A DNA stretch of 64,000 nucleotides from Escherichia coli (GTDB lineage: Bacteria; Pseudomonadota; Gammaproteobacteria; Enterobacterales; Enterobacteriaceae), in the NCBI RefSeq assembly GCF_029227855.1, contig NZ_CP074356.1; one strand, 5' to 3'. The notes beneath the pieces were generated by a model. The model had not been told where the DNA came from. It saw only the letters and a program-made list of their open reading frames with translations, and made no database searches. The number at the start of each line of letters is the position of its first letter. Within the stretch, counting starts at the first letter, position 1. The position numbers were made by a program, and so were the translations under genes. Positions 31,933 through 32,805 of the stretch are shown here, in pieces.

Positions 31933-32805
31933 TTACCAGCGACCGGACGCGCCGCCACCGCCAGAAGAACCGCCCCCGCCGCTAAATCCGCCGCCACTTG
32001 AGCCGCCACCGGAACCGCTGTTGTCTGAATGATAACTTCTACCAGATGCTTTTTTCTGAAGTACACATAAACAGGTAAAGACCATAATGGTGGTGAAAGT
32101 AAAAAAGAAGAAAAATACAGCAATGGAAAAAGTTTTATCGGAGAACAGGAATAAATCTAAAAGATAGATTGCTGAAATACAGACACTGCTTTTACATGCG
32201 CGACAAAAATTACTGCCTTGATGAAAAAACCAGAAAGGGAAGAACATCACTGCAAATACCCAAAAAATAGCAAAGTAGTAATGATCGCTGGAATACGCTG
32301 ATTCACTTTCTGAAGGATTAGCCGAATATTGGTGTTGTGAAGTGAGTTGGTTATTTAAAGCGATTATAGCTAACTCTAATCCCTTAGCTAATTTTTGTTG
32401 TTTAAATGCGGGTATCATGTTGCTACGGATGATATCTCCAGCCAGAGCATCGGTTACCTTTTCTTCCAGCCCATAACCTACCTGGATGCGGACAGTACGA
32501 TCCGACAAGGCAACAATGATCAGTATCCCATCATTGCGTTTGGCATCTCCTAAACGCCAATTGTTAAAAACCCTTGTAGCATATTGTTCAATTGTCTCGT
32601 CTTTGGTTGTGGGAATAATTAATACAGCAATTTGTACTTGGGTATTATTGAAAATAGATTCTAACTTCCGCGTCAGTTCTTTCTTTTCTTGTGAGTTTAA
32701 GCTACTCGTAAGATCCGTAACTTGTTGCTGTAATGATGGGACAATAGTTGGTTGGGCTGCAACAAAGGAACACACGAATGTGAACATTAGTATGAAATAG
32801 CGCAT
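31933..32805 (-). CDS. ygcG: TPM-domain protein YgcG with signal peptide and Gly/Ser-rich C-terminal tail, 290 aa
   Basis: ORF track 313 aa; start trimmed to [19 protein letters not shown] (cat at 32803-32805 on + strand). Confidence 0.8.

Follow-up and report, generated by a model that had tools for sequence, protein, structure and literature searches.

The founding TPM proteins, Psb32, TLP18.3 and MOLO-1, combine an exported TPM domain with C-terminal hydrophobic helices that serve as an anchor, and the phosphatase or ATPase activity claimed for TLP18.3, BA42 and BA41 has been disputed by others. The same Pfam domain and fold are found in BA41 of Bizionia argentinensis (5ANP), PG0361 (2KW7) and Rhom172_1776 (7TBR). 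Bacillus subtilis YdjH, a product of the pspA-ydjGHI operon, acts in a membrane-stress module. Here, we analyze YgcG, a member of this superfamily encoded by ygcG in a 64,000-nucleotide stretch of Escherichia coli DNA (contig NZ_CP074356.1, hereafter the window), and the Gly/Ser-rich tail with which it ends. On balance, we lean toward reading this tail, from covariation and structure prediction, as a flexible tether followed by a docking strand for the TPM domain.

YgcG shares with Psb32, TLP18.3 and MOLO-1 the exported domain and the hydrophobic anchor. It falls below the equivalog cut-off for the photosystem II repair protein Psb32 (NF047379; 36.5 versus 160 bits), and the tail motif was not detected in Psb32 (Tll0404), where the profile match ends at about profile position 193. 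Comparison with proteins of known structure gave sequence E-values of 1e-20 to 1e-24 against the 5ANP, 2KW7 and 7TBR proteins, and Foldseek E-values of 7e-12 to 5e-6 against 5ANP, 7TBR, 2KW7 and 3PTJ (target TM-score of at most 0.90, for 5ANP). The deposited 277-residue sequence of BA41 ends in ...GGGGFGGGGASGGW, which is the same tail motif as that of YgcG, and about 145 residues corresponding to the TPM domain alone were modeled, so that the tail has never been seen structurally.

The tail is mentioned in the literature as a "low-complexity segment" following the TPM domain of YdjH. That protein differs from YgcG in having PspA, an SPFH protein and YdjG as operon partners and no LemA, and its C-terminus (...SRGSF), known here from a primer sequence, is at best a degenerate version of the motif. 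One relative bears the database name "putative glycine rich transmembrane protein", and ygcG and its Gly-rich tail are thus already known as objects. No function for YgcG was found in the open-access literature searched. In Cupriavidus necator H16, the reciprocal substitutions G253W/W253G in a YgcG-family protein recurred in two independent laboratory-evolution studies, whose authors describe the family as being of unknown function; position 253 may lie in the Gly-rich tether.

Architecture of YgcG and its C-terminal motif

YgcG displays the architecture of the YgcG family (COG1512-type), namely a signal peptide, a TPM domain, hydrophobic helices and a Gly-rich tail ending in GGGG[AS]SGxW. RefSeq names the gene ygcG and its product YgcG family protein. 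The start codon adopted here (protein beginning MRYF) matches the annotation in K-12 and in a strain identical over our 1,027-nucleotide ygcG query, and the annotated gene is shorter than the mechanically listed open reading frame (ORF; 31933..32874, 313 residues), which begins at an upstream ATG. The features are as follows:

31933..32805, minus strand: ygcG coding sequence, 290 residues plus stop, comprising signal peptide, TPM domain, three hydrophobic helices and Gly/Ser tail
32752..32805, minus strand: predicted signal peptide, residues 1-18, read from the sequence; helix 2-12 in the model
32353..32721, minus strand: TPM domain, residues 29-151; Pfam match at 52-174 of the 313-residue ORF
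32047..32283, minus strand: three hydrophobic helices in the AlphaFold2 model, H1 (residues 175-193), H2 (199-220) and H3 (224-253)
31987..32046, minus strand: juxtamembrane basic stretch and variable Gly/Ser tether, residues 254-273
31936..31986, minus strand: conserved 17-residue C-terminal motif, residues 274-290, with a predicted β strand at 284-289

The first-pass annotation, made from the sequence alone, had described a flexible Gly/Ser tail that follows a hydrophobic segment at the end of a TPM-domain protein and that is unusual for such a protein, and had suggested that its length may vary between strains. The descriptive part of this account holds. YgcG matches PF04536 with 123.9 bits (cut-off 22.1) over profile positions 1-123 of 125, and positions 31933-32040 of the minus strand encode its last 35 residues, with 16 Gly and 8 Ser among the final 28. 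The binomial probability of at least 23 Gly or Ser in 28 residues is about 3e-16 for an assumed Gly plus Ser frequency of 0.132, and the stretch is unique among the 785 stop-to-stop ORFs of the window. In the AlphaFold2 model (mean predicted local distance difference test (pLDDT) score of 83.4, 116-sequence alignment), the TPM domain reaches pLDDT values of 96-98 and the tail comes after the hydrophobic helix 224-253. The pLDDT is below 50 over residues 254-271, so that the tether is modeled as disordered, and averages 80 over residues 271-280 and 93 over residues 281-290.

The tail is far from unusual in its family. A phmmer scan of 1.84 billion representatives retrieved 21,688 relatives, and we inspected the best 150, which are mostly 30-45% identical to YgcG. 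The sequence [F/Y/W][S/G]GGGG[S/G/R][F/S]GGGG[A/S]SG[S/R/K/G]W occupies the extreme C-terminus of 137 of these 150, a family hallmark, and the 13 exceptions are fragments or frameshifted ORFs. Gly is present in all 137 motifs at each of positions -12, -8, -7 and -6, Trp at -1 in 136 and Ser at -4 in 133. This ranking is somewhat biased because the tail itself contributes to the score; a query restricted to the TPM domain yielded only fragments of up to 240 residues. In a scan of one genome per species, whose sample is not neutral since one of the two search patterns was the motif itself, relatives occurred in alpha-, beta-, gamma- and deltaproteobacteria, Bacteroidota, Leptospira, Treponema, Brocadiaceae, candidate phyla radiation (CPR) bacteria and one Nanoarchaeota metagenome-assembled genome. 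In the scanned loci, 78 ORFs have a strict motif, and every one of them is part of a TPM gene; in one case the ORF is the downstream half of such a gene that has been frameshifted.

The final 17 residues have the same length throughout, from E. coli to Bacteroidota, Spirochaetes and CPR bacteria, and their sequence hardly varies. Across 77 genes, all GGN, GCN and TCN/AGY codons occur at the invariant motif positions, which indicates that selection acts on the peptide and not on the DNA. The tether that precedes the motif spans 10-55 residues in 116 homologues and consists of 59% Gly plus Ser with scattered Arg and aromatic residues. The other most conserved stretch of the family is R-[IL]-E-V-G-[YR]-G-L-E on strand β4 of the TPM domain. 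No curated family covers the tail in the NCBIfam and Pfam scans, the lone NCBIfam match of YgcG being a weak one to Psb32, and we disregarded a sub-threshold, low-complexity match of one relative to a YxzE-like bacteriocin.

Aromatic or hydrophobic residues at a C-terminus are recognized by PDZ proteases, DegS and Prc among them. The near-universal terminal Trp (136/137) and the small residues next to it could likewise mark YgcG for a PDZ protein or a protease that binds C-termini, or could serve in sorting. We consider this highly improbable: neither an NCBIfam sorting-signal model nor any other model matches the tail, the order of helix, basic stretch, Gly/Ser tether and motif is the reverse of that in LPXTG, PEP-CTERM and GlyGly-CTERM signals, and a tag would leave unaccounted for the covariation of the motif with residues 80 and 104 of the TPM domain described below.

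Covariation between the tail and the TPM domain

We computed mutual information with average-product correction over 177 motif-bearing homologues (146 effective sequences). Helix α2 (residues 76, 77 and 80) and strand β4 (residues 104-109, bearing the signature RIQVGYGLE) of the TPM domain covary with the tail, and of all long-range couplings across the protein, the top two connect F80 in α2 with S281 at motif position -10 (z = 16.3) and T104 at the start of β4 with R289 at motif position -2 (z = 9.6). Position 281 is also coupled to residues 77 and 76 on the same face of the helix (z of about 7). The residue combinations at the two pairs are distributed as follows:

Tail position -10 Phe: residue 80 is Ala, Val or Gly in 108/109
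Tail position -10 Ser: residue 80 is Phe in 62/65
Tail position -2 Arg or Lys: residue 104 is non-basic in 67/72
Tail position -2 non-basic: residue 104 is Lys or Arg in 88/105
Tail position -2 Asp: residue 104 is Lys in 9/9

Such swaps make physical sense as compensations, a Phe in one pair and a basic residue in the other moving between the tail and the TPM domain. E. coli YgcG is of the S281/F80 and R289/T104 type, and BA41, which obeys the same rule, is of the opposite type at both pairs, with Phe at tail position -10 combined with Gly 80 and Gly at tail position -2 combined with Arg 104.

Shared ancestry can inflate covariation, which weighs against a structural interpretation, and paired contrasts argue otherwise. 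A neighbor-joining tree built from the TPM domain shows 21 changes at position 281 and 23 at position 80, yet no more than 24 changes of the joint state. Among 41 disjoint close pairs differing at -10, residue 80 switches in 39, as compared with 1 of 69 control pairs; for close pairs differing at -2, residue 104 switches in 38 of 54 (control pairs, 14/69). From these sequence comparisons, the tail peptide co-evolves with, and hence probably binds, the TPM domain of YgcG itself.

The predicted structure is consistent with this proposal. DSSP assigns a β strand to residues 284-289 of the AlphaFold2 model, and since the remaining strands (29-31, 58-64, 93-99 and 104-109) all belong to the TPM domain, the tail strand would have to pair with that sheet. 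The couplings 289-104 and 282-111 have a common register of i + j = 393, which is what antiparallel pairing of strand 284-289 with β4 (104-109) would give. Paralogues encoded in one operon have a common covariation type, so that the peptide could dock equally well on another subunit or in cis. The shortest tethers of the family, 10-11 residues, would favor a target near the end of H3. The conservation and covariation of the peptide and its confident AlphaFold2 structure are thus observed, and the physical contact, the strand register i + j = 393, any choice between cis and inter-subunit docking and the biological role are inferred from them.

In the mechanism that we propose, the tail would consist of a short basic stretch, a disordered Gly/Ser tether of variable length and a 17-residue C-terminal peptide, and this peptide would be the functional element, folding back as a β strand on a TPM domain, which may belong to the same chain, to a sister subunit or to a paralogue. 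The tail strand may pair antiparallel with the edge strand β4, which bears the signature R-I/L-E/Q-V-G-Y-G-L-E, with residue -10 packing on helix α2 and the Gly-rich tether providing reach and flexibility. The role that we think most likely would be to cap or complete the conserved TPM surface and so control the assembly of the LemA/TPM envelope module. The 17-residue C-terminal motif of YgcG and the peptide FGGGGFGGGGASGGW would accordingly be candidate TPM-domain ligands.

β-strand augmentation by a terminal peptide is familiar from PDZ ligands and from donor-strand complementation in chaperone-usher pili. As proposed for YgcG, a disordered terminal peptide completes the edge of a sheet in these systems and the C-terminal residue matters. 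YgcG differs in that the ligand would be tethered on the same polypeptide across the membrane region; there is no homology between the systems, and the contact in YgcG is a predicted one. No description of the motif or of its docking was found in the searchable open-access literature.

Membrane topology and the location of the C-terminus

All three hydrophobic segments are present in each of 116 aligned homologues, with mean Eisenberg hydrophobicities of 0.67 (H1), 0.54 (H2) and 0.73 (H3) and low hydrophobic moments. In the homologues, the region before H1 is acidic, the loop between H1 and H2 is rich in basic residues (Lys/Arg reaching 61% in a column), the turn between H2 and H3 is neutral and the segment following H3 carries a net positive charge. 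We used these alignment-based segment statistics in place of Kyte-Doolittle transmembrane counts, which proved unreliable (1-9 helices). With a predicted signal peptide at the N-terminus, the TPM domain is expected to be periplasmic; the TPM domains of related proteins are lumenal. The three hydrophobic helices and the charge pattern together predict a cytoplasmic C-terminus, opposite to the TPM domain.

This prediction is a difficulty for a docking strand: the C-terminus and the TPM domain are predicted to lie on opposite sides of the membrane, and contact between them needs a common compartment. Further points weigh in the same direction. An independent DeepTMHMM prediction for the related TLP26 also gives three helices; AlphaFold2 takes no account of the membrane; the 80-281 and 104-289 contacts derive from DSSP, register and covariation and not from model coordinates; and the BA41 structure models the TPM domain only, although the deposited sequence includes the tail. 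The conflict could be lifted by an even number of membrane crossings, by an unconventional route of the tether or by an indirect cause of the covariation. We found no support for H2 being an interfacial amphipathic helix, which would restore a common compartment: its hydrophobic moment does not exceed those of H1 and H3, and its hydrophobicity suffices for a membrane-spanning segment. A search for covariation between transmembrane segments that could orient the helices returned no strong couplings in an alignment with 29% gaps, and no topology experiment on YgcG was found in the open-access literature searched.

An indirect cause would fit a tail that resides in the cytoplasm, where the motif would act as a short linear motif recruiting a cytoplasmic partner and the coupling to the TPM domain would be indirect or phylogenetic. 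The charge distribution and the three hydrophobic helices speak for this alternative, as does the analogy with B. subtilis YdjH, which anchors PspA and YdjI and ends in ...SRGSF according to the ydjH primer sequence. A candidate partner is also at hand, as a small TPM protein devoid of a signal peptide is part of some 40% of the canonical operons. In about 33 loci this protein is the third gene product, of about 165 residues, ending in NELPDxPVxL (for example L053:6867-7364 and L045:6790-7287, with the conserved C-terminus HFP...NELPDxPVxL).

When the small TPM protein was fused to the tail of its operon partner, using 23 sequence pairs, the motif had pLDDT values of 38-51 and stayed disordered in the AlphaFold2 model, and binding of the motif to the small cytoplasmic TPM protein is thus unsupported, with the proviso that the alignment was shallow and the fusion artificial. 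The PVVM at the C-terminus of the small protein itself forms a short strand in this model, predicted on its own TPM domain. That the motif was left undocked suggests that docking onto TPM domains by AlphaFold2 is not indiscriminate. In addition, K-12-type loci keep the motif with neither lemA nor a small TPM gene nearby, and a cytoplasmic partner would leave unexplained why the motif has, about 20 times over, exchanged residues with positions 80 and 104 of the exported domain of YgcG itself in a sterically and electrostatically complementary manner. We therefore consider a cytoplasmic recruitment motif unlikely.

Returning to the docking strand, the stronger proposition is that the peptide truly binds the exported TPM domain, whether in cis, between subunits or between paralogues, and that the standard prediction of three helices and a cytoplasmic C-terminus is wrong or incomplete. 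We hold this tentatively, leaning very slightly toward doubt. One possible resolution is an even number of crossings, for instance with H2 being re-entrant; another is that the Gly-rich tether, being free of side chains, could pass through the helix bundle or an oligomer so that the peptide reaches the periplasm. Both the docking and the topology conflict appear undescribed in the open-access literature searched.

Tail length and organization of the ygcG locus

In another explanation, which follows the strain-to-strain length variation put forward in the first-pass annotation, the tail would be a low-complexity spacer devoid of any sequence-specific role and its length would drift by replication slippage. 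At the DNA level, the repeat content is modest:

31991..32018, no strand assigned: weak 12-nucleotide periodicity in the tether-coding DNA, detected by Tandem Repeats Finder (TRF)

The best TRF array has a period of 12 with 2.3 copies and 81% matches, and its score of 35 lies under the default threshold, which counts against slippage. A repeat scan added imperfect direct repeats of 15-18 nucleotides in the tail-coding DNA, which like the weak periodicity would be expected of slippage; several near-perfect tandem copies were not found by TRF or by the repeat scan.

The locus is matched in 5,073 of 5,426 complete E. coli genomes, and we surveyed tail length by querying a spread sample of 60 E. 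coli records with the tail region. K-12-type tails have the length of the query in all sampled full-length matches except that of E105, which is 3 nucleotides shorter. The 90% cluster of the window's YgcG holds 1,681 members, and the 12 full-length members that we read are all 290 residues long, with rare point differences only. Where the locus has four genes (see below), its third TPM gene displays three stable tail lengths, the variants being four residues longer (GGGS, O157:H7 type) or one Ser shorter (PapM-32-1). All in-frame length variants in E. coli fall within residues 254-273, where the proximal GGGS units lie, and leave the terminal 17 residues untouched. In-frame indels of the tail are rare and lineage-fixed, and among the E. 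coli sampled we found neither frameshifting nor strain-to-strain hypervariability. The suggestion of strain variation is therefore borne out by the few variants of -1 and +4 residues and fails within allele classes, where the length is constant.

Synonymous change runs freely through the same codons. The last 30 codons of K-12 and of the window differ by four synonymous changes and by no amino-acid change, and the 17 motif codons of three E. coli paralogues differ by nine synonymous and one non-synonymous substitutions. Contingency loci subject to slipped-strand mispairing resemble ygcG in its repetitive GGN/TCN codons and few in-frame indels; ygcG differs from them in lacking a perfect multi-copy repeat and hypervariability and in the strong constraint on its protein sequence. 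The -1 residue variants (E105 and PapM-32-1), the +4 residue variants (O157 type) and the 10-55 residue range of the tether across the family would all be compatible with drift by slippage. A spacer of this kind would not be expected to hold its last 17 residues at one length and almost unchanged from phylum to phylum while the codons vary freely at synonymous sites, nor to show a single length within each 90% cluster and in almost every E. coli genome sampled. We regard a sequence-independent spacer as a very remote explanation for the tail. The comparison of orthologs had been named at the outset as the check on slippage, and the terminal conservation that it revealed, together with the weakness of the DNA periodicity, means that the interpretation by slippage and strain variation is largely refuted.

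The genes in this part of the window are, in order, pyrG, eno, ygcG (minus strand), queE and a CRISPR array, and the eno-queE interval (31874-33098) occurs in two forms in E. coli. The elements of the locus are as follows:

Two-gene form, yqcG-ygcG: found in the window and in K-12; at least 80% of the ygcG query is covered in 3,925 genomes
Four-gene form, lemA-TPM1-TPM2-TPM3: found in O157:H7, UTI89, Nissle 1917 and THO-008
32819..32960, minus strand: yqcG, a remnant lying upstream of ygcG and, according to DNA alignment with lemA loci, left over from the 5' end of lemA
31893..31922, no strand assigned: bidirectional intrinsic-terminator hairpin between the convergent eno and ygcG

Both forms have common flanks, which comprise about 205 nucleotides at the queE side and, at the eno side, the terminator and the tail-coding DNA; this eno-side flank spans 141 nucleotides and is 100% identical between the window and THO-008. 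The hairpin folds with -20.3 kcal/mol (z = -6.0) and is kept in all allele types, and a scan for consensus promoters and terminators did not report it. The third TPM gene of Nissle 1917 is a mosaic, with its 3' 755 nucleotides being 93.5% identical to ygcG of the window. In O157:H7, the first TPM paralogue (224 residues, L005:3726-4400) is truncated and lacks the third helix and the tail, and the second (L005:2344-3492) carries a Gly to Val substitution in the terminal motif (SSVRW). In the E. coli record NZ_CM151386.1, an IS1 element lies inside ygcG and splits it into two TPM-annotated pieces.

Of 80 related loci, 68 have lemA directly upstream in the same orientation, as do the E. coli alleles with four genes. 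No LemA ORF was found in the 64-kb window, which thus holds no LemA-TPM operon. The yqcG remnant is colinear with the first codons of lemA in the four-gene form, which encode its lipoprotein signal-peptide region, and resembles them in DNA sequence. A one-nucleotide insertion breaks the frame of yqcG in the window, the annotation of the strain that matches the ygcG query throughout lists it as a frameshifted pseudogene, and its K-12 name is "cell envelope stress response protein". The GC content of ygcG is 30-40%, or 24-40% with the upstream region (32050-33050), as compared with about 50% for eno and queE; the tail-coding part alone is GC-rich (63-64%). The AT-richness of ygcG could reflect horizontal origin or silencing. 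Downstream of queE, the CRISPR array (about 34087-34690) gives rise to ORFs with the repeated peptides FIPAGAGNS, YPRWRGEL and GLSPLARGT, and a direct_repeat is annotated at the same position in the strain identical over the ygcG query.

The tail of YgcG is neither junk nor a mutational hotspot, as one of the two stretches that are best conserved in this family, for which over 20,000 relatives can be detected, lies in it, and two compensatory swaps tie its terminal peptide to the signature surface of the TPM domain. C-terminal tags, such as those used in fusion and two-hybrid studies of relatives, may consequently disrupt the protein. If the peptide does bind the exported domain, the tail would be a built-in ligand capping the conserved RIEVGYGLE surface of the TPM domain, and this would provide a first mechanistic handle on the LemA/TPM envelope module.

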